From Aegotheles albertisi (Eukaryota): 42,503 nt of DNA. This document shows positions 13,549 to 42,503 of this stretch, piece after piece. Location of the stretch: the NCBI GenBank assembly GCA_039906565.1, contig JBDMAX010000536.1, forward strand, positions 161,716-204,218, read 5' to 3'. A program made the translations under genes and the position numbers. A model generated the notes under the pieces. That model worked only from the letters and a program-made list of their open reading frames with translations, had not been told where the DNA came from and made no database searches. Numbering within the stretch: the stretch's first letter is position 1; the number at the start of each line of letters is the position of its first letter.

Positions 13549-13740
13549 CTGCAAAAAAGGCATCGATATCGAGAGATGAACTGCATGGTTTCTCCACACA
13601 GACACAGGCAGAAAACTACAGAACCAAGAGTACACCAAAAAACTCCAATCCGGCCCCTGAGGAGACCACCTTGGCTGCCGTGAAAGGTTGTCTGCCCTGG
13701 GATACGATTTTCCCTGGGTAGGAAGGAAATTGCTCTTCAC

Positions 13741-22690: not shown

Positions 22691-22834
22691 TCAGGGGACG
22701 TGGTCGGGGGAGGTGGCACCGCTGGGGGGCTGGGTGAGCCCCAGCAGCCCCCGGGCGGTGGTGAAGAGGTTGAGGGGGGCGGTGCCGTCGGTGATGAGCG
22801 TTGACTGCAGCCCCAGCCCCTGCAGCAGCTTCAC
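22691..22834 (-). CDS. MVP: MVP last coding exon: [47 protein letters not shown].
   Basis: Matches human MVP ...[40 protein letters not shown]. Acceptor GGCAG|GTG. Stop TGA at 22691-22693. Confidence 0.85.
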
Positions 22835-22844
22835 CTGCCGGGAC

Positions 22845-23245
22845 CACTGCGCTGGCCACGCCCCCCCCGAGAGGCCACGCCCCCCCTTGAGACCCCGCCC
22901 CCAGTGGCAGCCACGCCCACAAAAGCCCCACCCCCTCCACAGAGACCCCACCTGAGGTCCTGCCCCTTCCAGGTGGCCACGCCCCCCCCGTGGCAGCCAC
23001 GCCCCCATTCATGGCTCCACCCCTTCCAGAAGGCCCTGGCCACGCCCCCACAGCTTAGATCCCCGCCCCCAAGGCCACGCCCCCACACAGCCCCACCCAG
23101 TCAAGGCCACGCCCCCATCCGAAGAGACCCCGCCCCCAGTGGCAGCCACACCCATAAAAGCCCCACCCCCTGTTAAGGCTCCGCCCCCTTCCAGATGGCC
23201 CCGCCCCCATGGCAGCCACACCCAGCCGAGGCCCCGCCCCCCCCC
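22845..23245. repeat. Array of ~20 GC/GT-box-like decamers ((G)GCCACGCCCCC / CCCCGCCCCC / CCCCACCCCC, ~20-27-bp period) filling the last MVP intron.
   Basis: Direct repetition. On the transcribed strand these read GGGGGCGTGG(C), an Sp/KLF-type box. Confidence 0.7.
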
Positions 23246-23250
23246 CTCAC

Positions 23251-23439
23251 CTGCAGCTCGGGCCCGGCGCGGGCGATGTCCCGGATGGTGTCGGGTCCCA
23301 GCGCCGCCACCACCTCCCGCACGCGCGAGGCCTCCACGTCCGCCAGCGCCTGCGCCCGCGCCGCCTCCGCCTCCGCCCGCGCCCGCTGCGCCCGCACCTC
23401 CTGCGCCTGCGCCCGCTCCAGCCGCGACAGCTCCGCCTC
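23251..23439 (-). CDS. MVP: MVP exon: [63 protein letters not shown] (cap-helix region).
   Basis: Matches human ...[25 protein letters not shown]. Acceptor CCCCCAG|G, donor CAG|GTGAGG. Confidence 0.85.
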
Positions 23440-23523
23440 CTGGGGGCGGGGCCGGACTCAGGACACGCCCCCTCCCGACTGGGGCGGGGCTAATGTTGGT
23501 CCCGCCCCCCAGCCCCCCCTCAC

Positions 23524-23650
23524 CGTCTCGATGGCGATGGCTTCGGCCTTCAGCTTGGCCTGCAGGATCGCGGCCTCCCCTTCGATGCGCGCGGCCTCCG
23601 CTCGCGCCTGCGCCTCCGCCCGCGCCGCCCCTGCGCTCTCCACCGCCGCG
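23524..23650 (-). CDS. MVP: MVP exon: (S)[42 protein letters not shown].
   Basis: Matches human [42 protein letters not shown]. Donor ACG|GTGAGG. Confidence 0.85.
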
Positions 23651-23674
23651 CTGGGGGGGTGGGCAGGACACGGG

Positions 23675-24000
23675 CCATGTGTCCCCAACCCCCCCAGAGT
23701 GTCCCCTGGGGGAGCAGGGACTGTCCCCAACCCCCCCAGAGTGTCCCCTGGGCGAGCAGGGACTGTCCCCAACCCCCCCAAAGTGTCCCCTGGGCGAGCA
23801 GGGACTGTCCCCAACCCCCCCAAAGTGTCCCCTGGGTGAGCAGGGACTGTCCCCAACCCCCCCAAAGTGTCCCCTGGGGGAGCAGGGACTGTCCCCAACC
23901 CCCCCAAAGTGTCCCCTGGGCGAGCAGGGACTGTCCCCAACCCCAAAGTGTCCCCTGGGGGAGCAGGGACTGTCCCCAACCCCCCCAAAGTGTCCCTTGG
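23675..24000. repeat. Intronic 42-bp minisatellite (GTCCCCTGGGGGAGCAGGGACTGTCCCCAACCCCCCCAGAGT), ~8 copies.
   Basis: Tandem periodicity. Confidence 0.9.
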
Positions 24001-24041
24001 GATGGGGCAGGAGCCCCGGTGCCTGTTGGGAAGATGCCGAC

Positions 24042-24158
24042 CTGAGAGCCTCCAGCTCCAGCAGTGCCCTGCGCGCCCGCTCAGCCTCCGCCTGGTCCAG
24101 GAGCCGCTGCCGCTCCAGGCGCCCGCGGGCCTCCTGCGCCAGCCGCTCCGCCTCTTGC
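24042..24158 (-). CDS. MVP: MVP exon: (R)[38 protein letters not shown](S).
   Basis: Matches human [39 protein letters not shown]. Acceptor CCCCAG|G, donor AG|GTCGGC. Confidence 0.85.
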
Positions 24159-24164
24159 CTGGGG

Positions 24165-24875
24165 ACACCGGGGGACACGGGGGGACACGGTGAGGGAATG
24201 GGGGAGCAGGGGACAGGGGGGTGTGGGGCGCATTTAGGGACACGAGGGACATGTGGGGGACATGGATGGACGCAGGGAGATCTGGTGATGTGGGGTGTTT
24301 GGGGACATGGGGGGGTGTGGGGGGACGTGGGAGGACACGGGGGACTGCGGGATGTGGGGGGGTGTCGGGGACTGTGGGATGTGGGGGGGTGTGGGGGAGC
24401 GTGGGGGGACGTGGGGGAGCATAGGGGGAAGTGGAGGGACGTGGTGGGATGTGGGGGAACATGGGACAGTGGGGCATGGGGGGATATGGTGGGGCATGGG
24501 GGGATATGGGGGGACATGAGGGGATATGGGGGGATATGGGGGGACATGGGGGGATATGGGGGGATATGGGGGGACATGGGGGGACATGGGGGGATATGGG
24601 GGGATATGGGGGGATATGGTGGGGCATGGGGGGATATGGGGGGACATGAGGGGATATGGGGGGATATGGGGGGACATGGTGGGGCATGGGGGGACATGGG
24701 GGGATATGGGGGGACTTGGGGGATGTGGAGGAGCGTGGGGGGACGTGGGAGGATGTGGTGGCAAGTGGGGGGACATGGGGGAGCATGGTGGGAAGTGGTG
24801 GGACGTGGAGGGACATGGGGGGACGTGGGGGGACATGGGGGGACATGGGGGGATGGAGGGGGAAGCGGGGGGCCA
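24165..24875. repeat. Intronic G-rich 20-21-bp minisatellite (GGGGGACATGGGGGGATATGG and variants), ~34 copies.
   Basis: Tandem periodicity. Confidence 0.9.
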
Positions 24876-24997
24876 TTTGGAGACACAAAGGACACCAAGT
24901 GGCCTCCTGGGCGCTAGCGTTGATCTCCAGGGACACAGGGGACAACACAGGAGGGACCTTGAGGGACAGGAGATGACACGGGGGGGGGCGTGAGGAC

Positions 24998-25209
24998 CTG
25001 GCAGCAGCCTCCTGGGAGTTGGTGGCGATCTCGATGGCCAACTGGACGCTGCGCTGCAGGGCGTCGCGGGTGCGCTGGTCCACGGGCTCCACGCTCTGGA
25101 TGTCCACGCTGGTCACCACCAGCCCATTGGGGGCGAAGCGGAGCTGCTCCCGCAGCCGCCCGGCCTCGTCGAAGCCAAACACGGCCGAGCAGATGAGACG
25201 GTTGGAGTT
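24998..25209 (-). CDS. MVP: MVP exon: [70 protein letters not shown].
   Basis: Matches human NSARIIRTAVFGFE...[43 protein letters not shown]. Acceptor TCCCCAG|AAC, donor AG|GTCCTC. Confidence 0.9.
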
Positions 25210-25537
25210 CTGGGGACAGCAGGGACGTGTGAGACACCTGGGGACATCAGGGTCACCTCCAGGATGGTGGGGACACACGAAGGATGGAGGGGAACTGGGG
25301 ACACGGGGGGATATCGCTGCCTCCATCAAAGCAGAACATGGTTGAGCAGAAGAGCTGATGGGGGTTCCTGGGCCATCAGGGCTGTGAAGGACACCTGGGG
25401 ACATCGGACACCGAGGGAGGCTCGAGGTGCCACAGGGTGAGACCCGGGGTGACCGTGGGCACCAGCGAGGGGGGCAGCGGCGCTCAGCCGAGGGGACGCG
25501 GTGGTGGGAAGGGACACCCGAGGGACACTGAGGAGAC

Positions 25538-25676
25538 CTTGTGGAAGTCATCGAAGGTGACGGCGGCCACGGCGCCGCGCACGCGGGAGGCCAAGGCCTT
25601 GCAGGCGTCGCCCACGAAGTCGGGGACACTGAAGAGGCGCCCAAGGGCCGCGGGGTCCTCCGGCACCTCGAAGTGC
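25538..25676 (-). CDS. MVP: MVP exon: (W)[46 protein letters not shown].
   Basis: Matches human [48 protein letters not shown]. Donor AAG|GTCTCC. Confidence 0.9.
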
Positions 25677-25681
25677 CTGGG

Positions 25682-26075
25682 GGGGTGGGGGAGATCCGGC
25701 CTCAGGGCCCCGCCCACCCTGGCCACGCCCACCCTGGCCCCGCCCACTGCCATGGCCACACCCCCTCACCGGGCCCCACCCCCTCACCCGGCCACGCCCA
25801 AGTGTGAGACCACGCCCCCCTTAACAGACCCCACCCCCTTCCAGACCACACCCCCAGGCTCCACCCCCACACCTGCGACCACGCCCCCTTCGTTGGCCAC
25901 ACCCCCAGGCCCCACCCCCTCCTCTGGCCCCGCCTTCACCACCAGACTCCACCCCCAAACATGAGGCCCCGCCCCCTCACCTGGCCCCACCCCTATCTCC
26001 CACACCCCCCCAAGGCCACTCCTCCTTTCTGGCCCCGCCCCCTGCCAGACTCCGCCCCCCAGCCCTAGGCCCCGC
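25682..26075. repeat. Second array of GC/GT-box-like decamers ((G)GCCACGCCCCC / CCCCGCCCAC / CCCCACCCCC), ~18 copies, filling an MVP intron.
   Basis: Direct repetition. Same family as 22845-23245. Confidence 0.7.
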
Positions 26076-26079
26076 CCAC

Positions 26080-26278
26080 CAGTTGTAGGCCAGCTGGAGC
26101 TGGAGCCGCGCGTGGTCGGCGGTCTCGATGGTGACGATGTCGGCGCAGAAGTCGGGGCCGAGGCGCAGGCAGAGGCTGCGGCGGGCGTGGGGGCGCTTGG
26201 GGCGCCCGGCCGAGAGCGACAGCACCGTCAGCTGCTCCCCGGGGCCCAGCACCACCAGCTCGGGGCCCAGCACCACCC
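26080..26278 (-). CDS. MVP: MVP exon: (R)[65 protein letters not shown](W).
   Basis: Matches human [67 protein letters not shown]. Acceptor CCGCAG|G, donor TG|GTGGGC. Confidence 0.9.
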
Positions 26279-26374
26279 TGCGGGACCACGGCGTCACCGG
26301 CGTCACCTCCCCTGTGGGGCCCGGAGCCACCGCACAGGGCCAAGGGACACGCGGGTGCCCACCAACACCTGGTG

Positions 26375-29300
26375 ACCCACCAAGGTCACACCCAAGGACA
26401 TCAGTGACACCCCAAGGCCATCAGTGACACCCCAAGGCCATCAGTCACACCAAGGTCACACCCAAGGACATCAGTGACACCCCAAGGCCATCGGTCACAC
26501 CAAGGTCACACCCAAGGACATCTGTGACACCCCAAGGCCATCGGTCACACCAAGGTCACACCCAAGGCCATCAGTGACACCCCAAGGCCATCGGTCACAC
26601 CAAGGTCACACCCAAGGACATCTGTGACACCCCAAGGCCATCGGTCACCCCAAGGTCACACCCAAGGACATCTGTGACACCCCAAGGCCATCGGTCACAC
26701 CAAGGTCACACCCCAAGGACATCAGTGACACCCCAAGGCCATCGGTCACACCCCAAGGCCATCGGTCACACCCCAAGGACATCTGTGACACCCCAAGGCC
26801 ATCAGTGACACCCCAAGGCCATCGGTCACACCAAGGTCACACCCAAGGACATCTGTGACACCTCAAGGCCATCAGTGACACCCCAAGGCCATCAGTGACA
26901 CCAAGGTCACACCCCAAGGACATCTGTGACACCCCAAGGCCATCGGTCACACCAAGGTCACACCCAAGGACATCTGTGACACCCCAAGGCCATCGGTCAC
27001 ACCAAGGTCACACCCAAGGACATCAGTGACACCCCAAGGCCATCGGTCACACCAAGGTCACATCCAAGGACATCAGTGACACCCCAAGGCCATCGGTCAC
27101 ACCAAGGTCACACCCAAGGCCATCAGTGACACCCCAAGGCCATCAGTCACACCAAGGTCACACCCAAGGACATCTGTGACACCCCAAGGCCATCAGTGAC
27201 ACCCCAAGGCCATCGGTCACACCAAGGTCACATCCAAGGACATCAGTGACACCCCAAGGCCATCGGTCACACCAAGGTCACACCCCAAGGACATCTGTGA
27301 CAGCCCAAGGACATCTGTGACACCCCAAGGCCATCAGTCACACCAAGGTCACACCCAAGGACATCTGTGACACCCCAAGGCCATCAGTGACACCAAGGTC
27401 ACACCCAAGGACATCAGTGACACCCCAAGGCCATCGGTCACACCAAGGTCACACCCCAAGGACATCTGTGACAGCCCAAGGACATCAGTGACACCCCAAG
27501 GCCATCGGTCACACCAAGGTCACACCCAAGGACATCAGTGACACCCCAAGGCCATCGGTCACACCAAGGTCACACCCAAGGACATCTGTGACACCCCAAG
27601 GCCATTGGTCACACCAAGGTCACACCCCAAGGACATCAGTGACACCCCAAGGCCATCGGTCACACCAAGGTCACCAATCACACCCCAAGGACAACATTCA
27701 AACACCAAGGCCACCAGTCACACCCAAGGACATCTGTGACACCCCAAGGCCATCGGTCACACCAAGGTCACACCCAAGGACATCTGTGACACCCCAAGGC
27801 CATCGGTCACACCAAGGTCACACCCCAAGGACATCAGTGACACCCCAAGGCCATCGGTCACACCAAGGTCACACCCAAGGACATCTGTGACACCCCAAGG
27901 CCATTGGTCACACCAAGGTCACATCCAAGGACATCTGTGACACCTCAAGGCCATCAGTCACACCCCAAGGACATCAGTGACACCCCAAGGCCATCAGTCA
28001 CACCAAGGTCACACCCCAAGGATATCTGTGACACCCCAAGGCCATCAGTCACACCAAGGTCACACCCCAAGGACATCTGTGACACCCCAAGGCCATCAGT
28101 CACACCAAGGTCACACCCAAGGACATCAGTGACACCCCAAGGCCATCGGTCACACCAAGGTCACACCCCAAGGACATCTGTGACACCTCAAGGCCATCGG
28201 TCACACCAAGGTCACACCCAAGGACATCAGTGACACCCCAAGGCCATCAGTGACACCAAGGTCACATCCAAGGACATCTGTGACACCCCAAGGCCATCGG
28301 TCACACCAAGGTCACACCCAAGGACATCTGTGACACCCCAAGGTCATCGGTCACACCAAGGTCACACCCAAGGACATCTGTGACACCCCAAGGCCATCGG
28401 TCACACCAAGGTCACACCCAAGGACATCTGTGACACCCCAAGGTCATCGGTCACACCAAGGTCACACCCAAGGACATCTGTGACACCCCAAGGCCATCGG
28501 TCACACCAAGGTCACACCCAAGGACATCAGTGACACCCCAAGGCCATCGGTCACACCAAGGTCACACCCAAGGACATCTGTGACACCCCAAGGCCATCGG
28601 TCACACCAAGGTCACACCCAAGGCCATCAGTGACACCCCAAGGCCATCGGTCACACCAAGGTCACACCCAAGGACATCAGTGACACCCCAAGGCCATCAG
28701 TGACACCAAGGTCACACCCCAAGGACATCTGTGACACCCCAAGGCCATCGGTCACACCAAGGTCACACCCAAGGACATCTGTGACACCCCAAGGCCATCG
28801 GTCACACCAAGGTCACACCCAAGGACATCTGTGACACCCCAAGGCCATCGGTCACACCAAGGTCACACCCCAAGGACATCAGTGACACCCCAAGGCCATC
28901 GGTCACACCAAGGTCACACCCCAAGGACATCAGTGACACCCCAAGGCCATCAGTGACACCAAGGTCACACCCAAGGACATCTGTGACACCCCAAGGCCAT
29001 CGGTCACACCAAGGTCACACCCCAAGGACATCTGTGACACCCCAAGGCCATCGGTCACACCAAGGTCACACCCAAGGCCATCAGTGACACCCCAAGGCCA
29101 TCGGTCACACCAAGGTCACACCCAAGGCCATCTGTGACACCCCAAGGCCATCGGTCACACCAAGGTCACACCCAAGGACATCAGTGACACCCCAAGGCCA
29201 TCGGTCACACCAAGGTCACACCCAAGGACATCAGTGACACCCCAAGGCCATCGGTCACACCAAGGTCACACCCAAGGACATCAGTGACACCCCAAGGCCA

Positions 29301-29825
29301 TCGGTCACACCAAGGCCACACCCCAAGGACATCTGTGACACCCCAAGGCCATCGGTCACACCAAGGTCACACCCCAAGGCCATCAGTGACACCCCAAGGC
29401 CATCAGTCACACCAAGGTCACATCCAAGGACATCAGTGACACCCCAAGGCCATCAGTGACACCAAGGTCACACCCCAAGGCCATCAGTGACACCCCAAGG
29501 CCATCAGTCACACCAAGGTCACATCCAAGGACATCTGTGACACCCCAAGGACATCAGTCACACCAAGGTCACATCCAAGGACATCTGTGACACCCCAAGG
29601 CCATCAGTCACACCAAGGTCACATCCAAGGACATCTGTGACACCCCAAGGCCATCGGTCACACCAAGGTCACACCCAAGGACATCTGTGACACCCCAAGG
29701 CCATCAGTCACACCAAGGTCACACCCAAGGACATCAGTGACACCCCAAGGCCATCGGTCACACCAAGGTCACCAATCACACCCCAAGGCCATCGGTCACA
29801 CCCAAGGCCATTGGTCACAGTCAAG
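26375..29825. repeat. Intronic ~50-bp minisatellite (CAAGGTCACA CCCAAGGACATCAGTGACAC CCCAAGGCCATCGGTCACAC; internal 20-bp subunits), ~68 copies over 3.4 kb. It is C/A-rich on the plus strand, so the pre-mRNA is G-rich.
   Basis: Tandem periodicity. Confidence 0.9.
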
Positions 29826-29884
29826 GAAGGACCCCCATGTGCACGGGTGTCACAGCCATGTCCCTGGTGTCCCCCCCTGCTCAC

Positions 29885-30135
29885 CGCGCCCGCCGCTCCC
29901 GGTAGTCGTAGACCTGCACGGCGGCGTTGTGGGGCACCTGGTAGGTGACGGCGCGCGTGCGGTCGCGCTGGGGGACGCCGGTGTCGGCGCTGGTGGCAGG
30001 GGACCCCCCGAGGTCGGCGCCGCGGGTGTCCCCACGGGCATCGGCCAGCAGGGCCTCCACGGCGGGGGGCAGCTCCTTCTCCCACAGCTCCTCGGCCGCC
30101 GTCAGCAGGTACGCCTGGCCCGTCACCACCCGCAC
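29885..30135 (-). CDS. MVP: MVP exon: [83 protein letters not shown](R).
   Basis: Matches human [82 protein letters not shown]. Acceptor CCCCGGTGCAG|G, donor CG|GTGAGC. Confidence 0.9.
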
Positions 30136-30139
30136 CTGC

Positions 30140-31075
30140 ACCGGGGACACAGCCACCGCGGGCACTGGGGGCACTGGGACGGGCTGGGGAACGGGAGGGG
30201 GCACAGGGGGACTGGGAGGGGGCTGGGGGAAATGGGAGGGGGCACAGGGGTACTGGGAGGGGGCACTGGGGGAAATGGGAGTGGGCTGGGGGAAATGGGA
30301 GTGGGCTGGGGGGAATGGGAGGGGGCACAGGGGTACTGGGAGGGGGGACTGGGGGAAATGGGAGTGGGCTGGGTGGAATGGGAGTGGGCACAGGGGCAAT
30401 GAGGGCACTGGAGTAGGCACAGAGGCACTGGGATGGGGACTGGGGGCAATGGGAGGGGACACTGGGCGCAATGGGAGGGGCACTGGGGGTACTGGGATGG
30501 GACCTGGGGGCACTAGAGGGGTGTGGGGGGAATGGGAGGGGGCGTGGGGGCACTGGGAGGGGGCACTGGGGGCAATGGGATAGGGACTGGGGGCAATGGG
30601 AGGGGCGTGGGGGGGACGGGAGGAGAACTGGGGGGGAATGGGAGGGGGCGTGGGGGCACTGGGATGGGGCTGGGGGAATGCGAGGGGGCACAAGGGCAAT
30701 AGGAGGGGGCATGGGGGCACTGGGAGGGGGCTGGGGGTACTGGGAGGGTGCATGGGGGCAATGAGGGCACTGGAGCAGGCACAGAGGCACTGGGATGGGG
30801 ACTGGGGGCACTGGGATGGGGACTGGGGGCACTGGAGGGGTGCAGGGGAATGGGAGAGGGTGCAGGGGCACTGGGAGCGGAACTGGGGGGAATGGGAGGG
30901 GGCATGGAGGCACTGGGAGAGGGCCTGGGGGCACTGGGAGGGGGCACTGGGGACACTGGGAGGGTGCACGGGGACACTGGGAGAGGAACTGGGAGTACTG
31001 GGAAGGGCTGCGTGGGATATTGGGAGCACTGGGAGGGGAGCTGAGAGACTGGGATTTTGTTTGGGGTCCCTGGGA
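30140..31075. repeat. Intronic G-rich minisatellite (GGGCACTGGGAGGGGGCACTGGGGGAAATGGGAG-type, ~30-bp units).
   Basis: Tandem periodicity. Confidence 0.85.
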
Positions 31076-33995
31076 TCTGACACATGGGATACTGGGGGGC
31101 AGTGGGGGGATACTGGGGGGCAGCGGGGGGGTACTGGGGGGCAGTGGGGGGATACTGGGGGGCAGTGGGGGGGTACTGGGGGGCAGTGGGGGGATACTGG
31201 GGGGCAGCGGGGGATACTGGGGGGCAGTGGGGGGGTACTGGGGGGCAGTGGGGGGGTACTGGGAGGCAGCGGGGGGATACTGGGGTGCAGCGGGGGGATA
31301 CTGGGGGGCAGTGGGGGGATACTGGGGTGCAGCGGGGGGATACTGGGATGGGGTTTCCGGTCACTGGGAGCACTGGGAGGGGAGCTGAGAGACTGGGATT
31401 TTGTTTGGGGTCCCTGGGATCTGACACATGGGATACTGGGAGGCAGTGGGGGGATACTGGGGGGCAGCGGGGGGGTACTGGGAGGCAGTGGGGGGATACT
31501 GGGGGGCAGCGGGGGATACTGGGGGGCAGTGGGGGGTACTGGGGGGCAGTGGGGGGGTACTGGGAGGCAGCGGGGGGATACTGGGGTGCAGCGGGGGGAT
31601 ACTGGGGGGCAGTGGGGGGATACTGGGCTGCAGCGGGGGGATACTGGGATGGGGTTTCCGGTCACTGGGAGCACTGGGAGGGGAGCTGAGAGACTGGGAT
31701 TTTGTTTGGGGTCCCTGGGATCTGACACATGGGATACTGGGAGGCAGTGGGGGGATACTGGGGGGCAGCGGGGGGGTACTGGGAGGCAGCGGGGGGGTAC
31801 TGGGGGGCAGTGGGGGGGTACTGGGGGGCAGCGGGGGGATACTGGGGGGCAGTGGGGGGATACTGGGGGGCAGCGGGGGGATACTGGGAGGCAGCGGGGG
31901 GGTACTGGGAGGCAGCGGGGGGGTACTGGGAGGCAGTGGGGGGATACTGGGGGGCAGTGGGGGGGTACTGGGGGGCAGCGGGGGGATACTGGGATGGGGT
32001 TTCCGGTCACTGGGAGCACTGGGAGGGGAGCTGAGAGACTGGGATTTTGTTTGGGGTCCCTGGGATCTGACACATGGGATACTGGGAGGCAGTGGGGGGA
32101 TACTGGGGGGCAGCGGGGGATACTGGGGGGCAGTGGGGGGGTACTGGGAGGCAGCGGGGGGATACTGGGGTGCAGCGGGGGGATACTGGGGGGCAGCGGG
32201 GGGATACTGGGGGGCAGTGGGGGGGTACTGGGGTGCAGCGGGGGGATACTGGGGGGCAGCGGGGGATACTGGGGGGCAGTGGGGGGGTACTGGGGGGCAG
32301 TGGGGGGGTACTGGGAGGCAGCGGGGGGATACTGGGGTGCAGCGGGGGGATACTGGGGGGCAGTGGGGGGATACTGGGGTGCAGCGGGGGGATACTGGGA
32401 TGGGGTTTCCGGTCACTGGGAGCACTGGGAGGGGAGCTGAGAGACTGGGATTTTGTTTGGGGTCCCTGGGATCTGACACATGGGATACTGGGAGGCAGTG
32501 GGGGGATACTGGGGGGCAGCGGGGGGGTACTGGGAGGCAGTGGGGGGATACTGGGGGGCAGCGGGGGATACTGGGGGGCAGTGGGGGGGTACTGGGGGGC
32601 AGTGGGGGGGTACTGGGAGGCAGCGGGGGGATACTGGGGTGCAGCGGGGGGATACTGGGGGGCAGTGGGGGGATACTGGGCTGCAGCGGGGGGATACTGG
32701 GATGGGGTTTCCGGTCACTGGGAGCACTGGGAGGGGAGCTGAGAGACTGGGATTTTGTTTGGGGTCCCTGGGATCTGACACATGGGATACTGGGAGGCAG
32801 TGGGGGGATACTGGGGGGCAGCGGGGGGGTACTGGGAGGCAGCGGGGGGGTACTGGGGGGCAGCGGGGGGATACTGGGGGGCAGCGGGGGGATACTGGGA
32901 GGCAGCGGGGGGTACTGGGAGGCAGTGGGGGGATACTGGGGGGCAGTGGGGGGATACTGGGGGGCAGTGGGGGGGTACTGGGGGGCAGCGGGGGGATACT
33001 GGGATGGGGTTTCCGGTCACTGGGAGCACTGGGAGGGGAGCTGAGAGACTGGGATTTTGTTTGGGGTCCCTGGGATCTGACACATGGGATACTGGGAGGC
33101 AGTGGGGGGATACTGGGGGGCAGCGGGGGATACTGGGGGGCAGTGGGGGGGTACTGGGAGGCAGCGGGGGGATACTGGGGTGCAGCGGGGGGATACTGGG
33201 GGGCAGCGGGGGGATACTGGGAGGCAGTGGGGGGATACTGGGAGGCAGCGGGGGGATACTGGGGGGCAGCGGGGGGGTACTGGGATGGGGTTTCCGGTCA
33301 CTGGGAGCACTGGGAGGGGAGCTGAGAGACTGGGATTTTGTTTGGGGTCCCTGGGATCTGACACATGGGATACTGGGGGGCAGTGGGGGGATACTGGGGG
33401 GCAGCGGGGGGGTACTGGGAGGCAGCGGGGGGATACTGGGGGGCAGTGGGGGGATACTGGGGGGCAGCGGGGGGATACTGGGATGGGGTTTCCGGTCACT
33501 GGGAGCACTGGGAGGGGAGCTGAGAGACTGGGATTTTGTTTGGGGTCCCTGGGATCCGACACATGGGATACTGGGGGGCAGTGGGGGGGTACTGGGGGGC
33601 AGTGGGGGGATACTGGGGGGCAGCGGGGGATACTGGGGGGCAGTGGGGGGATACTGGGAGGCAGTGGGGGGATACTGGGAGGCAGCGGGGGGATACTGGG
33701 GGGCAGCGGGGGGATACTGGGATGGGGTTTCCGGTCACTGGGAGCACTGGGAGGGGAGCTGAGAGACTGGGATTTTGTTTGGGGTCCCTGGGATCCGACA
33801 CATGGGATACTGGGAGGCAGTGGGGGGATACTGGGGGGCAGCGGGGGATACTGGGGGGCAGTGGGGGGGTACTGGGAGGCAGTGGGGGGATACTGGGGGG
33901 CAGTGGGGGGGTACTGGGAGGCAGTGGGGGGATACTGGGAGGCAGCGGGGGGATACTGGGATGGGGTTTCCGGTCACTGGGAGCACTGGGGGGGG
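31076..33995. repeat. Intronic G-rich 20-21-bp minisatellite (GGGATACTGGGGGGCAGTGGG) organised into higher-order repeats (~200-400 bp). The units are separated by a conserved ~95-bp spacer (GGATGGGGTTTCCGGTCACTGGGAGCACTGGGAGGGGAGCTGAGAGACTGGGATTTTGTTTGGGGTCCCTGGGATCTGACACATGGGATACTGG), ~10 spacer copies.
   Basis: Tandem periodicity. The spacer recurs at ~31021, 31347, 31646, 31991, 32395, 32700, 33002, 33286, 33482, 33722, 33962. Confidence 0.9.
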
Positions 33996-34045
33996 GTTGT
34001 GGGGGGTTGGGGTGCCCAAGGGGTGCCCGGGAGGGGTGGTGGCAC

Positions 34046-34204
34046 CTTCCCGGTGCGGATGTCCCGCACGTAGATGCCCTCGTTGTCGGCCAGGGCCACC
34101 GCCCGGCGTCGCTCCAGCACGGCCACCTCGGCCGGTGGCACGAACTCCAGGGGACCCCGGGCCAGCCAGCGGTCGCCCGCCCGCCGCGTCACCTCCGTGC
34201 CCTC
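34046..34204 (-). CDS. MVP: MVP exon: [53 protein letters not shown].
   Basis: Matches human [51 protein letters not shown]. Acceptor CTGCCAG|G, donor AAG|GTGCCA. Confidence 0.9.
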
Positions 34205-34482
34205 CTGGCAGGGGGGTGGTGGTGTCAGGGACCACCTGGGGCCAGCAGGGACACCCCCACCCCCACCCCGCGTGGGGACACCGAGGTCCCCTCTGTCCTG
34301 GCCCCACAGGTGTCCCCTGGGGCCTCCAGAACCCCCCAGGTGTCCCTCACGCACCCCAAGTGTCCCCAGGTGACCCCTCAACCACTCCTGGGTGTCCTCA
34401 AGTTGTCCCCTTTATCCCCCACTGGTTCCCTGCCCAGGTGTCCCCTGGAGGAACCCCAAACCCCAGTTGTCCCCAGGGCCAC

Positions 34483-34608
34483 CTCATCGGTGTCCTTGAT
34501 GGTCTGGAGTGCCTGGAGCAGCAGCCCCTCGTCCTCGGAGAGCACGAAGACGTCCTCGATGCCAGCCTGGAGCCGCTCGCCCGGCTGCAGGAAGAAGGAC
34601 TTCTCCCC
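34483..34608 (-). CDS. MVP: MVP exon: [42 protein letters not shown].
   Basis: Matches human [43 protein letters not shown]. Acceptor CCCCAG|GGG, donor GAG|GTGGCC. Confidence 0.9.
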
Positions 34609-35219
34609 CTGGGGACGTGGAGACACAGCACCAAGGTGGTGAGGACATGGGCCATGGCCACAGCGATGTGGTGGGACATGGGGCAAGGACGTCAGGACAT
34701 GGTGGAACACTGGGCAGGGTCCTTCAAGGGTGTCTTGGGGTCCCCATGGGTCACCTTCAAGACCTTCAGAGGTGCCCACAGGTATGGTGGGGCCAACTTG
34801 AGGTTCCTAGTGGCCACCTGCAGGTTCCTGTGGAAGCTCAGGGTCCCTCAACAAGACAGCAGGGCTGATGTCTTGGGGATGTTGGGGTCACCTCTGTGAC
34901 TTTTGGGGATGCGCTTGGGTACGTCAGGGCCACCTGTGGTCCCTGGGACCCTCAGGTCACCTCAGGCACCCTTGGGGACAACTCAAGGGTACATCAGGAT
35001 CCCTCAGGGGTGCCTTCAGGGACACCTCAGGGGTACACAGGGGTCCCTTGGGGCCACCTTTGAGACTTTGGGGGACACCTACGTGTACACCAAAGTCCCT
35101 TGGGGCCACCCTTGGGTGCTGAGAGCCAACACTTGGGTGCCTTGGGACAACTTGGGGTCCCTCTGTAACACCACAGTGGTGCCTTGACGTGTCTTGGGGA
35201 CCACCCAAGGGGTGCCCAC

Positions 35220-35456
35220 CTTGACAACGCGCTGCTGGCCCAGCTGGGGCTGCCCGTTGGGTCCCACCGGGTCCAGGATGACGCAGTACTGCCGGGGACC
35301 CAGCGTCGTCACCGCCACCTCGGCCACCACCTCCTCGAAGACGTCCGGGATGTAGGCTTCGCTCTGCTCGTGGGTCACCAGCCACTCCTCGCCCGTGCGC
35401 CGCACCCGGCCCTGCTCGTCCTCGAAGGTCCGCGTCGCGCGCAAGTGCAGGGCTTT
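35220..35456 (-). CDS. MVP: MVP exon: [79 protein letters not shown].
   Basis: Matches human [79 protein letters not shown]. Acceptor CTGGCAG|AAA, donor AAG|GTGGGC. Confidence 0.9.
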
Positions 35457-35564
35457 CTGCCAGGGGGGGACACGCGGTGGGCGTTGGGACACCCCAACAG
35501 GTCCCATCACCCAGGGGTGCAGGGAGATGGAGAGATGGCACCACCCAAACCAACCCTTGAGGGA

Positions 35565-36265
35565 CCTCATTGCATGTGGGGACAGGGGTGGGGTGGGTGG
35601 AGAGGACACCACGCCCTGGAGGGCCCTTGTGGGACACGGGACCCCCAAGAGCTCGGGAGGGTCCTCACCACCCATGGGCACAAGGGGTCAGAGCCTTGGA
35701 GGATCAGGTGGTGGTGGGACCCTTCACCCATCCCTGGAGGGTCCTCACCACCCATGGGCACAAGGGGTCAGAGTCTTGGAGGATCAGGTGGTGGTGGGAC
35801 CCTTCACCCACCCCTGGAGGGTCCTCACCACCCATGGGCACAAGGGGTCAGAGCCTTGGAGGTTCAGGTGGTGGTGGGACCCTTCACCCACCCCTGGAGG
35901 GTCCTGGTCACCCATGGGAGCAGGGGAATGGTGACACGGGACCCCCAAGAGCTCGGGAGGGTCCTCACCACCCATGGGCACGAGGGGTCAGAGTCTTGGA
36001 GGACCAGGTGGTGGTGGGACCCTTCACCCATCCCTGGAGGGTCCTCACCACCCATGGGCACAAGGGGTCAGAGCCTTGGAGGTTCAGGTGGTGGTGGGAC
36101 CCTTCACCCACCCCTGGAGGGTCCTTGTCACCCATGGGAGCAGGGGAATGGTGACACGGGACCCCCAAGAGCTCGGGAGGGTCCTCACCACCCATGGGCA
36201 CGAGGGGTCAGAGTCTTGGAGGATCAGGTGGTGGTGGGACCCTTCACCCACCCCTGGAGGGTCCT
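35565..36265. repeat. Intronic 80-bp minisatellite (~9 copies). Its unit resembles the acceptor site plus the 5' part of the downstream exon at 36323-36417, making it a pseudo-exon array.
   Basis: Unit (minus strand) CCCCTTGTGCCCATGGGTGGTGAGGACCCTCCAGGGATGGGTGAAGGG... compared with the authentic CCCTGTGCCCAG|GTGAGGAGTGGCTGGTGAAGCAGG. The 80-bp period was measured directly. Confidence 0.8.
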
Positions 36266-36322
36266 GGTCACCCCAGGAGGGGTCTCAGCACCCCAGGGCC
36301 CCCAGGAGCAGGTGCCCCACAC

Positions 36323-36417
36323 CTTCTCGGTCAGGATGTAGGCGTCCACGACGTCCACCACCTCCTCGTAGACCCCGGGCAGGTAGGCACCCACCTGCTT
36401 CACCAGCCACTCCTCAC
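36323..36417 (-). CDS. MVP: MVP exon: (G)[31 protein letters not shown].
   Basis: Matches human [32 protein letters not shown]. Acceptor TGCCCAG|GT, donor AAG|GTGTGG. Confidence 0.9.
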
Positions 36418-36439
36418 CTGGGCACAGGGGCACAGGGCT

Positions 36440-38255
36440 GGGTAGGGGTCCCCTATAGCCCCTCACAGCCCCTATAGCCCCCCCCACAGCCCCCTATAGT
36501 CCCCTATAGCCCCTCACAGCCCCTATAGCCCCCCCACAGCCCCCTATAGCCCCTCACAGCCCCCTATAGCCCCCCCACAGCCCCCTATAGCCCCTCATAG
36601 CCCCTATAGCCCCCCCACAGCCCCCTATAGCCCCCACAGCCCCTATAGCCCCTCACAGCCCCTATAGCCCCCACAGCCCCTATAGCCCCTCACAGCCCCC
36701 TATAGCCCCTCATAGCCCCTATAGCCCCTCATAGCCCCTTATAGCCCCTCACAGCCCCTATAGCCCCCCCCCAGCCCCTATAGCCCCTCATAGCCCCTAT
36801 AGCCCCTCACAGCCCCCTATAGCCCCTCATAGCCCCTATAGCCCCTCATAGCCCCCTATAGCCCCTCATAGCCCCCATAGCCCCCCCCCAGCCCCCTATA
36901 GCTCCCCACAGCCCCCTATAGCCCCCCCATGGCTTCCTATAGCCCCTCATAGCCCCTATAGCCCCTCATAGCCCCCATAGCCCCCCCCAGCCCCTATAGC
37001 TCCCCACAGCCCCCTATAGCCCCCCCATGGCTTCCTATAGCCCCTCATAGCCCCTATAGCCCCTCATAGCCCCTATAGCCCCTCACAGCCCCCTATAGCC
37101 CCTCATAGCCCCTATAGCCCCTCACAGCCCCCTATAGCCCCTCATAGCCCCTATAGCCCCCCCATGGCTTCCTATAGCCCCTCATAGCCCCTATAGCCCC
37201 TCACAGCCCCCTATAGCCCCTCATAGCCCCTATAGCCCCTCACAGCCCCCTATAGCCCCTCACAGCCCCTATAGCCCCCCACAGCCCCATATAGCCCCCC
37301 CATGGCCCCCTCTACCCCTCACAGCTGCCTATAGCCCCCTCACAGTCTCCTATAGACCCCCCATGGATCCCTATAGCCCCCCCATGCCCCCTATAGCCTT
37401 CTCTCCAGCCCCCTATAGCCCCCCATGGCCCCTATAGCCCCTCCTGCCCAGCAACTTATAGCCCCCACAGCCCCCTATAGCTCCCCACAGCCCCTATAGC
37501 CTCCCACAGCCCCCTATAGCCCCTATAGCCTCCCACAGCCCCCTACAGCCCCTCATAGCCCCTATAGCCTCTCATAGCCCCTATAGCCCCTCATAGCCCC
37601 TATAGCCCCTCATAGTCCCCTATAGCCCCTCATAGCCCCTATAGCCCCTCACAGCCCCCTATAGCCTCTCATAGCCCCTATAGCCCCTCATAGCCCCTAT
37701 AGCCTCTCACGGCCCCCTATAGCCCCTCATAGCCCCTATAGCCCCTCACAGCCCCTATAGCCCCTCATAGCCCCTATAGCCCCTCACAGCCCCTATAGCC
37801 CCCCCACGGCTTCCTATAGCCCCTCATAGCCCCCTATAGCCCCTCACAGCCCCCTATAGCCCCTCATAGCCCCTATAGCCCCCCCATGGCTTCCTACAGC
37901 CCCTCATAGCCCCTATAGCCTCTCACAGCCCCCTATAGCCCCTATAGCCCCTCATAGCCCCTATAGCCTCTCACAGCCCCCTATAGCCCCTCACAGCCCC
38001 TATAGCCTCCCACAGCCCCCTATAGCCCCTCATAGCCCCTATAGCCCCTCACAGCCCCCTATAGCCCCTCATAGCCCCTATAGCCCTCATAGCCCCCTAT
38101 AGCCCCTATAGCCCCTCATAGCCCCTATAGCCCCTCACAGCCCCTATAGCCCCTCATAGCCCCTATAGCCCCCCCACGGCTTCCTATAGCCCCTCATAGC
38201 CCTTATAGCCCCTCACAGCCCCCTATAGCCCCTCACGGCCCCCTATAGCCCCCCC
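36440..38255. repeat. Intronic C-rich 20-22-bp minisatellite (CCCCTATAGCCCCTCACAGCC / CCCCTATAGCCCCTCATAGCC), ~85 copies.
   Basis: Tandem periodicity. An inverted copy of the same family occurs at 40670-40950. Confidence 0.9.
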
Positions 38256-38259
38256 AGCC

Positions 38260-40225
38260 ACCTCCACCCCCCCGTACCCCCCTGTCCCCCCCCTGTAACG
38301 GTGACCCTGCGGGTGCCCCCCTGTCCCCCCCCCTGTACCGGTGACCCTGCGGGTGCCCCCCCATGCCCCCGTCCCCCCGACCCTGTGGGTGCCCCCCCTG
38401 TCCCCCCCCGTACCGGTGACCCTGTGGGTGCCCCCCCCTGTCCCCCCCCTGTCCCCGTGACCCTGCGGGTGCCCCCCCATCCCCCCCCCGTACCGGTGAC
38501 CCTGCGGGTGCCCCCCCATCCCCCCTGTCCCAGTGACCCTGCGGGTGCCCCCCCATCCCCCCCCCCGTACCGGTGACCCTGCGGGTGCCCCCCCCATCCC
38601 CCCCCCTGTACCGGTGACCCTGCGGGTGCCCCCCCTGTCCCCCCCCTGTACCAGTGACCCTGCGGGTGCCCCCCCGTCCCCCCCTGTCCCAGTGACCCTG
38701 CGGGTGCCCCCCCGTCCCCCCCTGTCCCAGTGACCCTGTGGGTGCCCCCCCATCCCCCCCCCCGTACCGGTGACCCTGTGGGTGCCCCCCTGTCCCCCCC
38801 CTGTACCGGTGACCCCGTGGGTGCCCCCCCCTGTCCCCCCTGTACCGGTGACCCTGTGGGTGCCCCCCCCATCCCCCCCATACCGGTGACCCTGTGGGTG
38901 CCCCCCCTGTCCCCCCCTGTCCCAGTGACCCTGTGGGTGCCCCCCCTGTCCCCCCCCTGTACCGGTGACCCTGTGGGTGCCCCCCCGTCCCCTCCCGTCC
39001 CGGTGACCCTGTGGGTACCCCCCATCCCCTCCCGTCCCGGTGACCCTGTGGGTGCCCCCCATCCCCCCTGTACCGGTGACCCTGCGGGTACCCCCCGTCC
39101 CCCCCCTGTACCGGTGACCCTGTGGGTGCCCCCCCATTCCCCCCCTGTACCGGTGACCCTGTGGGTGCCCCCCTGTCCCCCCTGTCCCAGTGACCCTGCG
39201 GGTACCCCCCCATCCCCCCGTACCGGTGACCCTGCGGGTGCCCCCCTGTCCCCCCCTGTCCCAGTGACCCTGCGGGTGCCCCATCCCCCCCCCTGTACCG
39301 GTGACCCTGTGGGTGCCCCCCTGTCCCCCCCCTGTCCCAGTGACCCTGCGGGTACCCCCCTGTCCCCCCCCGTACCGGTGACCCTGTGGGTGCCCCCCTG
39401 TCCCCCCCCTGTCCCAGTGACCCTGTGGGTGCCCCCCCTGTCCCCCCCCCTGTACCGGTGACCCTGTGGGTACCGCCAGTCCCCCCCCTGTCCCAGTGAC
39501 CCTGTGGGTGCCCCCCTGTCCCCCCCTGTACCGGTGACCCTGCGGGTGCCCCCCTTGTCCCCCCCCCGTCCCGGTGACCCTGCGGGTGCCCCCCCTGTCC
39601 CAGTGACCCTGTGGGTGCCCCCCCTGTCCCCCCCTGTCCCAGTGACCCTGCGGGTGCCCCCCCATCCCCCCTGTCCCAGTGACCCTGCGGGTGCCCCCCT
39701 GTCCCCCCCCTGTCCCAGTGACCCTGTGGGTGCCCCCCCATCCCCCCTGTCCCAGTGACCCTGCGGGTGCCCCCCTGTCCCCCCCCTGTCCCAGTGACCC
39801 TGTGGGTGCCCCCCCCATCCCCCCCTGTCCCAGTGACCCTGCGGGTGCCCCCCTGTCCCCCCCCTGTCCCAGTGACCCTGTGGGTGCCCCCCCCATCCCC
39901 CCCTGTACCGGTGACCCTGTGGGTACCCCCTGTCCCCCCCCCGTACCGGTGACCCTGCGGGTGCCCCCCCTGTCCCCCCCTGTCCCAGTGACCCTGCGGG
40001 TGCCCCCCTGTCCCCCCCCTGTACCGGTGACCCTGTGGGTGCCCCCCCATCCCCCCCCCTGGTACCGGTGACCCTGCGGGTGCCGCCAGTCCCCCCCTGT
40101 ACCGGTGACCCTGCGGGTGCCCCTCCCTGTCCCCCCTGGTACCGGTGACCCTGCGGGTGCCCCCCTGTCCCCCCTGTCCCAGTGACCCTGTGGGTACCCC
40201 CCCATCCCCCTGTACCGGTGACCCT
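38260..40225. repeat. Intronic 37-38-bp minisatellite (ACCGGTGACCCTGCGGGTGCCCCCCTGTCCCCCCCTGT), ~52 copies. It was amplified from the 3' end and 5' splice site of the adjacent MVP exon, so each unit carries CACCG|GTACAG or the variant CACTG|GGACAG.
   Basis: The exon at 40216-40347 ends ...CGCAGGGTCACCG|GTACAG. The array units on the transcribed strand read CACCCGCAGGGTCACCGGTACAGGGGGG(GA)CAGGGGGG. Confidence 0.9.
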
Positions 40226-40347
40226 GCGGGTGCCGTGCCGGTCCCGGCTCTCCTTGCGTGCCCGCAGCCGGATGGCCTGGTTGTGCCCGATGACGGTGCC
40301 CTGCAGCGTCTCCACCACCGCCACCTCCTTCCGCGGGACGTAGGTGC
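40216..40347 (-). CDS. MVP: MVP exon: (G)[43 protein letters not shown](G).
   Basis: Matches human [45 protein letters not shown]. Acceptor CCCCCCAG|GC, donor CCG|GTACAG. Confidence 0.9.
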
Positions 40348-40437
40348 CTGGGGGGCTGCGCGGTCACCACGGGCTGTGTCCCCCCCCCGGCCCCTGGCTG
40401 TGTCCCCCCCGCCCCGGGCTGTGTCCCCGCTGCTCAC

Positions 40438-40561
40438 CGGGACCCTCGAAGAGCCACTCGTCCCCCGCCACCACTTTCTGGCCACCCTCGTCCGTGAAGT
40501 CCAGCAGGGCCCGGAGGCGCAGGGCGGTGTCGGCCACGAGCACCTGGAGCGGGGTCACCCC
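40438..40561 (-). CDS. MVP: MVP exon: [41 protein letters not shown](G). This is the 5'-most MVP exon inside the window; the N-terminal ~110 codons lie beyond 42503.
   Basis: Matches human [41 protein letters not shown]. Acceptor TGTCCGCAG|GGG, donor CCG|GTGAGC. Confidence 0.9.
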
Positions 40562-40669
40562 CTGCGGACACGGGGGGAGCTCAGGGGACCCCCTGGGGAC
40601 CCCCTGGGGACACGGGGACAGCTCAGGGGACCCCCTGGGAACCCCCTGGGAACCCCCTGGGGACATGGG

Positions 40670-40950
40670 GGGGGGCTGTAGGGGCTGGGAAGGGGCTATA
40701 AGAGGCCATGAGGGGCTATAGGGGGCTGTGAGGGGGCTATAGGGGGCTATAGGGGGCTATAGGGGGCTATAGGGGGCTGTGAGGGGGCTATAGGGGGCTG
40801 TGAGGGGCATTGGAGGCCATAGGGGGGCTATAGGGGGCTGTGAGGGGGCTGTGAGGGGCATTGGAGGCCGTAGGGGGGCTATAGGGGGCTGTGAGGGGGC
40901 TATAGGGGCCCGTGGAGGGCTATAGGGAGCCATGGGGGGGGCTATAGGGA
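40670..40950. repeat. G-rich 20-22-bp minisatellite (GGGCTATAGGGGGCTGTGAGG). It is the inverted complement of the 36440-38255 array family.
   Basis: GGGGCTGTGAGGGGGCTATAGGGGG is the reverse complement of CCCCCTATAGCCCCCTCACAGCCCC. Confidence 0.85.
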
Positions 40951-42480
40951 GTTATGAGATTCTATAGGGGGCCCTGGAGGACTGTAGGTGTTGGGGGGGG
41001 GGCTATAACAGGCTGTCGGGCTTATGGGGCCTATAGGAGTTGTAGGGCCCATAGGGGTTGTAGGACCTATAGGGGTCATGGGGCCATAGGGGTCACAGAG
41101 CCTATAGGGGTCATGGGGCCTATAGGGGTTATGGGGCCTATAGGGGTCATGGTGCCTATAGGGGTTATGGGGCCATAGGGGTCACGGTGCCTATACGGGT
41201 TATGGTGCCTATAGGGGTCATGGATCCTATAGGGGTCACGGTGCCTATAGGGGTCATGGTGCCTATAGGGGTCACGGTGCCTATAGGGGTCATGGTGCCT
41301 ATAGGGGTCATGGTGCCTATAGGGGTCATGGGGCCTATAGGGGTTATGGATCCTATAGGGGTCATGGTGCCTATAGGGGTCATGGAGTCTATAGGGGTTA
41401 TGGTGCCTATAGGGGTCATGGTGCCTATAGGGGTTATGGGGCCATAGGGGTCACGGTGCCTATAGGGGTCACGGGGCCTATAGGGGTTATGGATCCTATA
41501 GGGGTCATGGATCCTATAGGGGTCACGGTGCCTATAGGGGTCACGGTGCCTATAGGGGTTATGGTGCCTATAGGGGTCACGGTGCCTATAGGGGTTATGG
41601 ATCCTATAGGGGTTATGAATCCTATAGGGGTCACGGTGCCTATAGGGGTCATGGTGCCTATAGGGGTTATGAATCCTATAGGGGTCACGGTGCCTATAGG
41701 GGTCACGGTGCCTATAGGGGTTATGGATCCTATAGGGGTTATGGGGCCTATAGGGGTCATGGTGCCTATAGGGGTTATGGGGCCATAGGGGTTATGGGGC
41801 CTATAGGGGTTATGGTGCCTATAGGGGTTATGGATCCTATAGGGGTCACGGTGCCTATAGGGGTCACGGTGCCTATAGGGGTCACGGTGCCTATAGGGGT
41901 TATGGATCCTATAGGGGTCATGGATCCTATAGGGGTCATGGTGCCTATAGGGGTCATGGGGCCTATAGGGGTCATGGGGCCATAGGGGTCACGGTGCCTA
42001 TAGGGGTCATGGATCCTATAGGGGTTATGAATCCTATAGGGGTCATGGATCCTATAGGGGTCATGGATCCTATAGGGGTCACGGTGCCTATAGGGGTCAC
42101 GGTGCCTATAGGGGTTATGGTGCCTATAGGGGTTATGGATCCTATAGGGGTTATGAATCCTATAGGGGTCACGGTGCCTATAGGGGTCATGGTGCCTATA
42201 GGGGTTATGAATCCTATAGGGGTCACGGTGCCTATAGGGGTCACGGTGCCTATAGGGGTTATGGAACCTATAGGGGTCATGGTGCCTATAGGGGTCACGG
42301 TGCCTATAGGGGTCATGGAGCCTATAGCGGTTATGGATCCTATAGGGGTTATGGATCCTATAGGGGTCACGGTGCCTATAGGGGTCATGGTGCCTATAGG
42401 GGTCATGGATCCTATAGGGGTCATGGTGCCTATAGGGGTCACGGTGCCTATAGGGGCTATAGGGGTCTATAGGGGTCACG
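40950..42480. repeat. G-rich 18-bp minisatellite (CCTATAGGGGTCATGGTG / CCTATAGGGGTTATGGAT variants), ~85 copies. It is related to the CTATAGGGG family.
   Basis: Tandem periodicity. It lies in the MVP intron upstream of the exon at 40438-40561. Confidence 0.9.
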
Positions 42481-42503
42481 GGGCCGCACCTGCTGGATCT
42501 CCT

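Follow-up and report, generated by a model that had tools for sequence, protein, structure and literature searches.

In intron 7 of the human gene F7, a variable number tandem repeat with a 37-bp unit is present in 5-9 copies, and its first monomer lies across the boundary between exon 7 and intervening sequence 7 (IVS7) (Borensztajn et al. 2006, PMC1557585). Although identical and functional, the pseudo-donors of this repeat stay silent, and splicing proceeds from the most upstream donor alone; when the donors were inactivated one by one, the next most upstream one was activated, and pseudo-sites raised to a consensus value (CV) of 91 were still non-competing, from which it was concluded that donor selection is oriented from 5' to 3' (PMC1557585). 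The introduction to that paper names the human genes IFI6, CBS, LMNB2 and PDGF as having similar minisatellites, and describes 25 pseudo-sites in intron 2 of IFI6 (6-16), the first two of which are used, as well as 15-20 repeats in intron 13 of CBS, of which two are used (PMC1557585). In birds, "sequence stuttering" of introns was reported for the dot chromosomes of chicken, with a subtype termed "exon stuttering", in which an exon edge with its splice donor or acceptor recurs in copies along the neighbouring intron (Hron et al. 2026, PMC12954441). In chicken, exon stuttering was found in 115 genes and 236 introns, with exon parts of 20-187 bp in 1-44 copies; chicken stuttering shows very high length polymorphism, and replication stress driven by G-quadruplexes (G4) or meiotic conversion was suggested as its cause (PMC12954441). 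The major vault protein (MVP) gene is not named in that paper or in its accessible supplements. Here, we describe an array of this kind, array 1, which follows an exon of MVP (exon B) in a 42,503-nt stretch of the Aegotheles albertisi contig JBDMAX010000536.1, hereafter the window. Array 1 is a junction-spanning intronic minisatellite, a case of exon stuttering; it probably arose as a by-product of instability, and the most upstream donor is probably the one in normal use.

The exon B junction and the array that reiterates it

A tblastn search with a vertebrate MVP probe placed most of a bird MVP gene on the minus strand of the window, its exons extending from about 42490 to about 22700. Its open reading frame (ORF), spliced from exon A to exon N via the first donor and with curated boundaries, contains zero stops. 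Exon B (132 nt, 40216-40347, minus strand), which encodes GTYVPRKEV...HGTRRVTG, was delimited by tblastn, the intact spliced ORF and alignment with six bird orthologs. With the exon-intron border marked by a slash, it terminates in CGC AGG GTC ACC G/gtacag, that is, ...GGCACCCGCAGGGTCACCG/GTACAG, and a split Gly codon opens with its final base. The authentic 5' splice site, CCG/GTACAG, occupies 40210-40218 (minus strand) and is weak by both position weight matrix (PWM) and consensus value. An earlier reading of this stretch (the original prediction) had put the exon end at 40216 with GTACAG behind it, and homology, reading frame and formal alignment all agree with that placement. Exon C (36323-36417, minus strand; tblastn and intact spliced ORF) begins with GT GAG GAG TGG, and the acceptor cccag/GT GAG GAG TGG at 36418/36417 joins it to exon B in frame, giving RVTG/EEWLV. 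This junction, which is also present in human MVP and in 22 annotated bird MVP proteins, is obtained from the authentic donor only. The branch length of the MVP gene in the window lies inside the range of other birds, and the gene is an intact ortholog under constraint; a pseudogene or a relaxation of constraint is ruled out by the intact spliced ORF and the ordinary branch length.

Intron B is 3,798 nt long and consists almost wholly of two arrays and a unique 3' end (36418-36449, minus strand), the latter made up of a pyrimidine-rich tract and the acceptor ...cccctgtgcccag/. Array 1 (38277-40234, minus strand) forms the 5' half of the intron (1.94 kb), and the 3' half is taken up by array 2 (36450-38263, minus strand), an unrelated 19/39-bp CTATAG minisatellite (GGGGCTATAGGGGCTGTGAG in transcript orientation) that carries about 25 CT/GTGAGG pseudo-donors and 85 TATAG/G motifs. 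The original prediction had let the array near exon B make up the downstream intron; it was right to place it there, although array 1 accounts for the 5' half only. By Tandem Repeats Finder (TRF), array 1 has a period of 39 and 51.1 copies with 83% matches (score 2294), and dissection at a fixed anchor likewise yields 51 units, the authentic junction included, with the consensus GCACCCGCAGGGTCACCG/GTACAGGGGGGG(ACA/AT)GGGGGG; the roughly 50 tandem copies noted earlier are thus borne out. Each unit combines the terminal 19 nt of exon B with the 5' splice site and a G-rich intron stretch of about 18 nt. The exon-derived half (GGCACCCGCAGGGTCACCG) is the segment in which array and exon overlap, at 40216-40234 (minus strand), as delimited by the TRF boundary at 40234 and by unit dissection. 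A BLASTn comparison of exon B with the intron gave 39 matches, mostly to exon positions 114-132, and the 20-mer CAGGGTCACCGGTACAGGGG occurs 50 times with no more than three mismatches, always inside 38290-40226, where 0.01 occurrences are expected by chance. This 20-mer was not found in the rest of the 42.5-kb window, nor was the unit motif found in four ortholog loci (L001-L004). The likeness between array unit and exon terminus, on which the original prediction had staked its reading, therefore survives formal alignment.

The GT dinucleotide is retained in 26 of the 51 units (51%), namely, the authentic site and 25 decoys, so that the intron does contain the many decoy donors that had been predicted, at a share of about half and not the two thirds first given. 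The GT-bearing units comprise 15 of type CCG/GTACAG (14 of them beyond the authentic one), seven GTACGG, two GTACCA, one GTATGG and one CTG/GTACAG, which makes 11 decoys with a GT variant other than the exact copy. Of the 25 units without GT, 24 carry GG, mostly as CTG/GGACAG, as had been proposed for all of them, and one carries TT. Unit length ranges from 36 to 41 nt with a mode of 39, a multiple of 3, which replaces the 37/38-bp units of the original prediction, and nearly all of this variation resides in the length of the G-runs. Unit 2 is a GG variant and offers no donor, and the first GT decoy, CCG/GTACCA at 40142-40143 (minus strand), is located 73 nt downstream of the authentic site.

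Units 10-18 (39550-39887, minus strand) are nine successive units without GT, in which, through unit 16, the spacer alternates between ACA and AT and column 7 mostly alternates between A and G; this pattern suggests a dimeric higher-order repeat of about 77 nt. Strict alternation of GT and GG is seen in units 19-29 (39130-39549, minus strand), a sign of a dimeric higher-order repeat and of block-wise expansion. Across the array, appreciable polymorphism (variants at 14-49%) is confined to four of the 22 columns outside the G-runs: column 2 (C/T, 44/7), column 7 (G/A, 26/25) and column 17 (C/T, 29/20), the last two being CpG transitions, and column 20 (T/G, 27/24), where the T of GT is located. 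Few singletons occur in the 22 columns (5 of 1,122 cells). The rarity of singletons, the small number of frequent variants and the dimeric blocks together point to a recent block-wise expansion or homogenisation of few unit types.

All three sense frames of array 1 are free of stop codons. A coding meaning for its open frame was rejected, since openness in all three frames is compositional, a by-product of a G content of 52%. The stop-free frames and the donor motifs could make gene predictors extend or mis-splice exon B, which calls for caution in annotation. The original prediction held that use of any decoy would shift the frame; this applies to 18 of the 25 GT decoys, whereas the other seven are in frame with exon C. 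As the units differ mainly by G-run length, these frame predictions are sensitive to homopolymer errors in the assembly. This raises the question of whether the array itself, its copy number or the length of its G-runs has been mis-assembled. Variation that is almost all in G-homopolymer length is the typical error mode of long reads, and G4-rich bird sequence is described as hard to sequence (PMC12954441, 10.1101/2025.10.17.683159). However, errors would not create four polymorphic columns, dimeric blocks and a clean boundary within the exon, the flanking exons are intact and in frame, and chicken arrays of the same class have been confirmed by raw nanopore reads (PMC12954441). An artefact of assembly or sequencing is therefore very unlikely, and what is at risk is the exact copy number and the frame bookkeeping only.

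The origin of array 1 was approached by comparison with six orthologous MVP loci, namely, those of a potoo, a malkoha, the black-headed gull, the white-tailed ptarmigan, the ostrich and the Brazilian merganser. In all six, the junction reads ...CG(C/T) GTC ACA G/GT(A/G), the intron is 0.4-1.1 kb long, and the exon-like half of the unit (GGCACCCGC..GTCAC.G/GTA) is conserved. An exon-derived repeat at the exon B junction was found in none of the six loci: intron B is non-repetitive in four, shows some repeat-like pattern in the ptarmigan, and in the ostrich holds a purely intronic 19-mer (90% repeat). Since the junction is conserved in the orthologs and the exon-derived repeat is missing from them, the direction is from the exon junction to the array, and the expansion is lineage-specific. 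At the level of these alignments, it is thus shown that array 1 was seeded from the exon junction in the lineage of the window, in support of the minisatellite seeded across an exon-intron junction that had been proposed. The MVP of the window is at most 93% identical to that of the sampled birds (639-aa spliced query; potoo, hoatzin and cuckoos gave the best matches) and has no close sister among them, which leaves the dating of the event coarse; a 196-aa junction protein query returned short, distant fragments only.

As regards the initial step, the intron of gull and malkoha starts with GTA/GCACCCGG, which repeats the GCACCCGC of the exon 21 nt upstream. A short direct repeat of this kind could have served as a substrate for slippage, and is mentioned here as a lead only. 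Relative to other birds, exon B has three synonymous changes in its terminal 19 nt, each of them located in the last 13 nt and common to the array. Gene conversion from array to exon was considered and rejected for want of an excess of changes (3 of 19 positions versus 14 of 111 in the rest of exon B; Fisher p = 0.71). Separately, when exon B was compared with four birds, 9 of its 13 window-unique nucleotide states were found to be changes to G on the transcript strand. These changes match the G-skew of array 1 and may reflect strand-asymmetric mutation or conversion bias.

Donor strength and the choice among donors

Donors were scored with an approximate PWM and with the Shapiro-Senapathy CV, using an approximate frequency table; calibrated on the published F7 values, the CV gave 76 versus 74 for the F7 site and was up to about 8 units off elsewhere. 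On these approximate scales, the authentic donor CCG/GTACAG is weak (2.05 bits, CV of about 62) and is among the four weakest of the 14 MVP donors by PWM, whereas the ancestral avian donor CAG/GTAGCA has a CV of about 70. The first GT decoy (GTACCA) scores no better than the authentic donor. Eight decoys, which span 38413-39946 (minus strand), restore a G at intron position +5 and outscore it, at about 5.9-6.4 bits and a CV of about 76: seven are GTACGG, with the G of GT at 39946, 39375, 39223, 38767, 38570, 38493 and 38413, and one is GTATGG, with the G of GT at 38883 (all minus strand; PWM and CV). Given the weak authentic score, the stronger copies and the approximately 25 pseudo-donors of array 2, the 9-mer alone cannot explain correct splicing.

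Weak donors seem to be common in the MVP gene of the window. Three further donors have a C at intron position +3, which is rare in vertebrate donors, namely, AAG/GTCTCC, CAG/GTCCTC and CAG/GTCGGC (at about 25537, 24997 and 24041, minus strand), and their scores are very low (-0.1 to 4.7 bits).

The authentic site and its copies also differ in their surroundings. The last 55 nt of exon B contain no G-run longer than three, and from 6 nt inside the intron the authentic donor is followed by runs of five and seven G, whereas each decoy has two runs of five to nine G directly upstream, on its exon side. G-runs have been reported to enhance a weak upstream donor and to silence splicing when exonic (PMC12062376). 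RNA structure that hides the decoys or exposes the authentic donor was rejected as an explanation, as the fold of 40080-40270 is no better than that of shuffled sequences (z = -1.56).

According to the reading of array 1 as a junction-spanning minisatellite, a segment of about 39 nt, comprising the end of exon B, the 5' splice site and G-rich intron, was tandemly duplicated in this bird's lineage and then expanded block-wise to 51 units. The expansion would be a by-product of a local repeat instability by which almost all large MVP introns have been filled, and no functional device. The pre-mRNA would then offer the authentic donor first, followed by the 25 GT-bearing near-copies, and the most upstream donor would be favoured by first-come, 5'-to-3' selection together with exon definition. 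The asymmetry of the G-runs may add to this, with enhancer-position runs downstream of the authentic site and silencer-position runs upstream of the decoys, and transcripts spliced from decoys would be removed by nonsense-mediated decay (NMD), 18 of the 25 decoys being frameshifting. The use of the first donor is argued from homology and from mammalian precedent, and the reasons proposed for it are inferred. Several points weigh against this reading. With a CV of about 62, the authentic donor is weaker than the F7 donor (74), the ancestral avian donor (about 70) and eight of its own copies (about 76), so that leakage to decoys could be greater than in F7, although these values come from an approximate frequency table that matched the F7 values only within about 8 units. 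In addition, classic "proximity" experiments with duplicated strong donors, as discussed in PMC1557585, had outcomes that conflict with each other.

The same weakness of the authentic donor is the starting point for the view that decoys are used appreciably. The array would then act either as a sink for unproductive splicing, with MVP output lowered through NMD according to the length and composition of the array, or as a source of isoforms whose vault repeat region carries in-frame, Gly-rich insertions of 50-574 residues. This view draws on the contrast between 2.05 bits (CV of about 62) for the authentic donor and about 76 for the eight decoys with +5G, on the identical 9-mer in 15 units, on the seven decoys that are in frame within a stop-free array, and on IFI6 and CBS, which are described in PMC1557585 as constitutively splicing from their first two pseudo-sites. 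However, F7 pseudo-sites improved to a CV of 91 remained silent while an upstream site was functional (PMC1557585), and at the present locus the unit that adjoins the authentic site has no GT, the first decoy being 73 nt away and, as GTACCA, no stronger. All decoys have long G-runs on the exon side, a silencer position, and the intact and conserved MVP argues that productive splicing suffices; a large Gly-rich insertion in the tightly packed vault shell would also be an implausible functional product. Appreciable decoy use, the main alternative, is therefore considered unlikely. It is less probable still that the locus breaks the rule that the most upstream donor wins and that a substantial share of MVP pre-mRNA is spliced from decoys. 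If this were nevertheless the case, either MVP dosage would depend through NMD on a hypervariable intronic array or vault proteins with Gly-rich in-frame insertions would be made, and the locus would amount to a natural assay in which 25 sites compete for 5' splice-site selection.

Alternatively, array 1 might be a selected regulatory element that tunes MVP transcription or splicing, either as a platform for the U1 small nuclear ribonucleoprotein (snRNP) or for the heterogeneous nuclear ribonucleoproteins (hnRNP) H/F or as a G-quadruplex/R-loop module, with selection progressively inactivating the GT of the decoys (GT to GG). The density of canonical G4 motifs on the transcript strand is indeed extreme (37 in 1.94 kb at 52% G, as compared to 0 on the opposite strand), the sole common transversion outside the G-runs is the one that destroys GT (27 T versus 24 G), and a GG variant occupies the unit adjoining the exon. 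On the other hand, MVP is equally conserved in the six other birds that lack the array, and neighbouring introns hold unrelated arrays of similar size, for which general instability is the simplest reading. Two donor-neutral variants have reached frequencies of about 40-50%, the frequency of GG is as expected from drift by unequal exchange, and GG shows linkage to a CpG-to-TpG change and has spread in blocks; the junction is also devoid of significant RNA structure, with the z of -1.56 given above. Selection on the array is thus highly improbable. Selection against GT in the decoys, taken as a candidate of its own, was rejected because it is inseparable from the drift of unit variants, two donor-neutral variants being similarly frequent.

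Other repeats of MVP and the remainder of the window

Tandem repeats account for 76% of the MVP region of the window (22700-42503), with a separate motif in each large intron. Further MVP minisatellites were identified at 26411-29772 (50 bp, 67 copies), 31086-33960 (21/42 bp, 67 copies), 30160-31008, 24301-24853 (10 bp, 56 copies), 23680-24001 (42 bp, 7.7 copies) and 35656-36265 (80 bp). The corresponding tandem-repeat coverage of MVP is 2% in the merganser, 12% in the gull, 15% in the ptarmigan, 23% in the potoo, 29% in the malkoha and 77% in the ostrich, in the latter with other motifs that are purely intronic. Copies of an exon edge in the flanking intron were detected in 1 of the 14 MVP introns examined, namely, intron B, with 49 copies of the 22-nt donor probe; at the other MVP donors and acceptors tested with 22-nt probes and up to four mismatches, exon stuttering was not found.

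The CTATAG minisatellite flanks exons A and B on both sides, in opposite orientations, at 41024-42485 and 40671-40949 on the one side and at 36450-38263 (array 2) on the other. In transcript orientation, the arrays upstream of exon A consist of CCCCTATAG (73 and 9 copies) and of six copies of CCCTCACAGC, and array 2 is their reverse complement, with CTATAGGGG (77 copies) and GCTGTGAGGG (21 copies). Judged by this complementarity, base pairing between the two sets could occur in the pre-mRNA and place exons A and B, along with array 1, in a loop, an arrangement that would favour exon skipping or back-splicing. The acceptor of exon A (40562/40561) has a small counterpart of the donor-side duplication: 24 nt of intron and the first 5 nt of the exon (cctgagct..ccccgtgtccgcag/GGGGT) recur 42 nt upstream as a duplicate that matches at 26 of 29 positions. 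This acceptor-side repeat spans 40557-40664 (minus strand), where TRF reports a period of 42 with 2.2 copies and a period of 11 with 7.5 copies, and the 11-nt cccagggggt repeat near the acceptor supplies further decoy AGs.

Downstream of MVP, at 18704-21160, lies a 41-bp minisatellite of about 60 copies with spurious minus-strand ORFs of up to 1,150 aa, which are an annotation hazard. Two exon-like ORFs on the minus strand, at 13444-13878 and 9044-9433, match the Pfam families UCH (C-terminal part of the ubiquitin carboxyl-terminal hydrolase domain; E = 1e-15) and RhoGAP (E = 1.3e-10), respectively, and thus reveal neighbouring genes downstream of MVP. The window also contains dispersed direct duplications of at least 200-300 nt, which link 8548-8847 to 15136-15435 (98% identical), 2047-2346 to 3631-3930 (97%) and 12933-13140 to 21727-21934 (87%). 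The ORFs that run across these duplications have identical peptides in common, and the duplications are probably copies of transposable elements or of long terminal repeats (LTR), or else a local segmental duplication.

Array 1 beside F7 and chicken exon stuttering

Clear parallels exist between array 1 and the repeat in F7. Both are head-to-tail intronic arrays that reiterate a donor, with a first monomer that spans the exon-intron boundary and an authentic donor followed by pseudo-donors; the units are of similar length (37 versus about 39 nt), some pseudo-sites keep the frame, and the host gene is functional. The two differ in size: the 5-9 copies in F7 each include 4 nt of exon, whereas each of the 51 copies in array 1 includes 19 nt. 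Furthermore, the pseudo-sites of F7 are all identical, whereas here half of the units have no GT and eight are stronger than the authentic donor, which itself has a CV of about 62 as compared to 74 in F7. Splicing of F7 was tested experimentally, whereas array 1 is known from its nucleotide sequence. IFI6 and CBS resemble array 1 in the many donors reiterated downstream of the authentic site and differ from it in that the most proximal unit of array 1 has no GT. Array 1 is thus a large natural case of a reiterated splice donor in an intact and conserved gene: of its 50 extra units, 25 have GT, 14 match the authentic site exactly and 8 surpass it in strength. It may be a convenient substrate for studying the 5'-to-3' donor rule derived from F7 in birds and with a very weak first site.

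Several of the features that define exon stuttering in chicken are likewise found here. The introns are heavily covered by local repeats, the repeated part is the edge of the exon (positions 114-132 of 132) together with its donor, the exon border is no more than 1 base from the source, and the motif is local, as 50 of 50 matches in the window and in the four ortholog loci fall inside array 1. In the exon-only BLASTn screen of PMC12954441, array 1 would be passed over, its best match reaching 39.2 bits against a threshold of 42.1, whereas a junction-spanning probe gives 65.3 bits. The 42.1-bit cut-off is a screening threshold and no biological criterion, and its authors state that the screen misses shorter exon parts (PMC12954441). 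The existence of exon parts below this threshold implies that exon stuttering is under-counted.

As in chicken, a GC-rich bird gene has introns full of strictly local, imperfect tandem repeats, the repeat holds a lateral exon segment and the donor from the exon border, and the exon itself is unaltered. In intron 18 of chicken PHF8, as in intron B, a second and purely intronic repeat shares the same intron. The GC content of the window (55-75%) and its high repeat load are compatible with a dot microchromosome, the class of chromosome on which stuttering was described. Array 1 differs from the chicken cases in species and gene, and its 50 copies exceed their maximum of 44. It adds MVP, and a bird lineage other than that of chicken, to the range of exon stuttering and is an unusually large example of an architecture that is already known.

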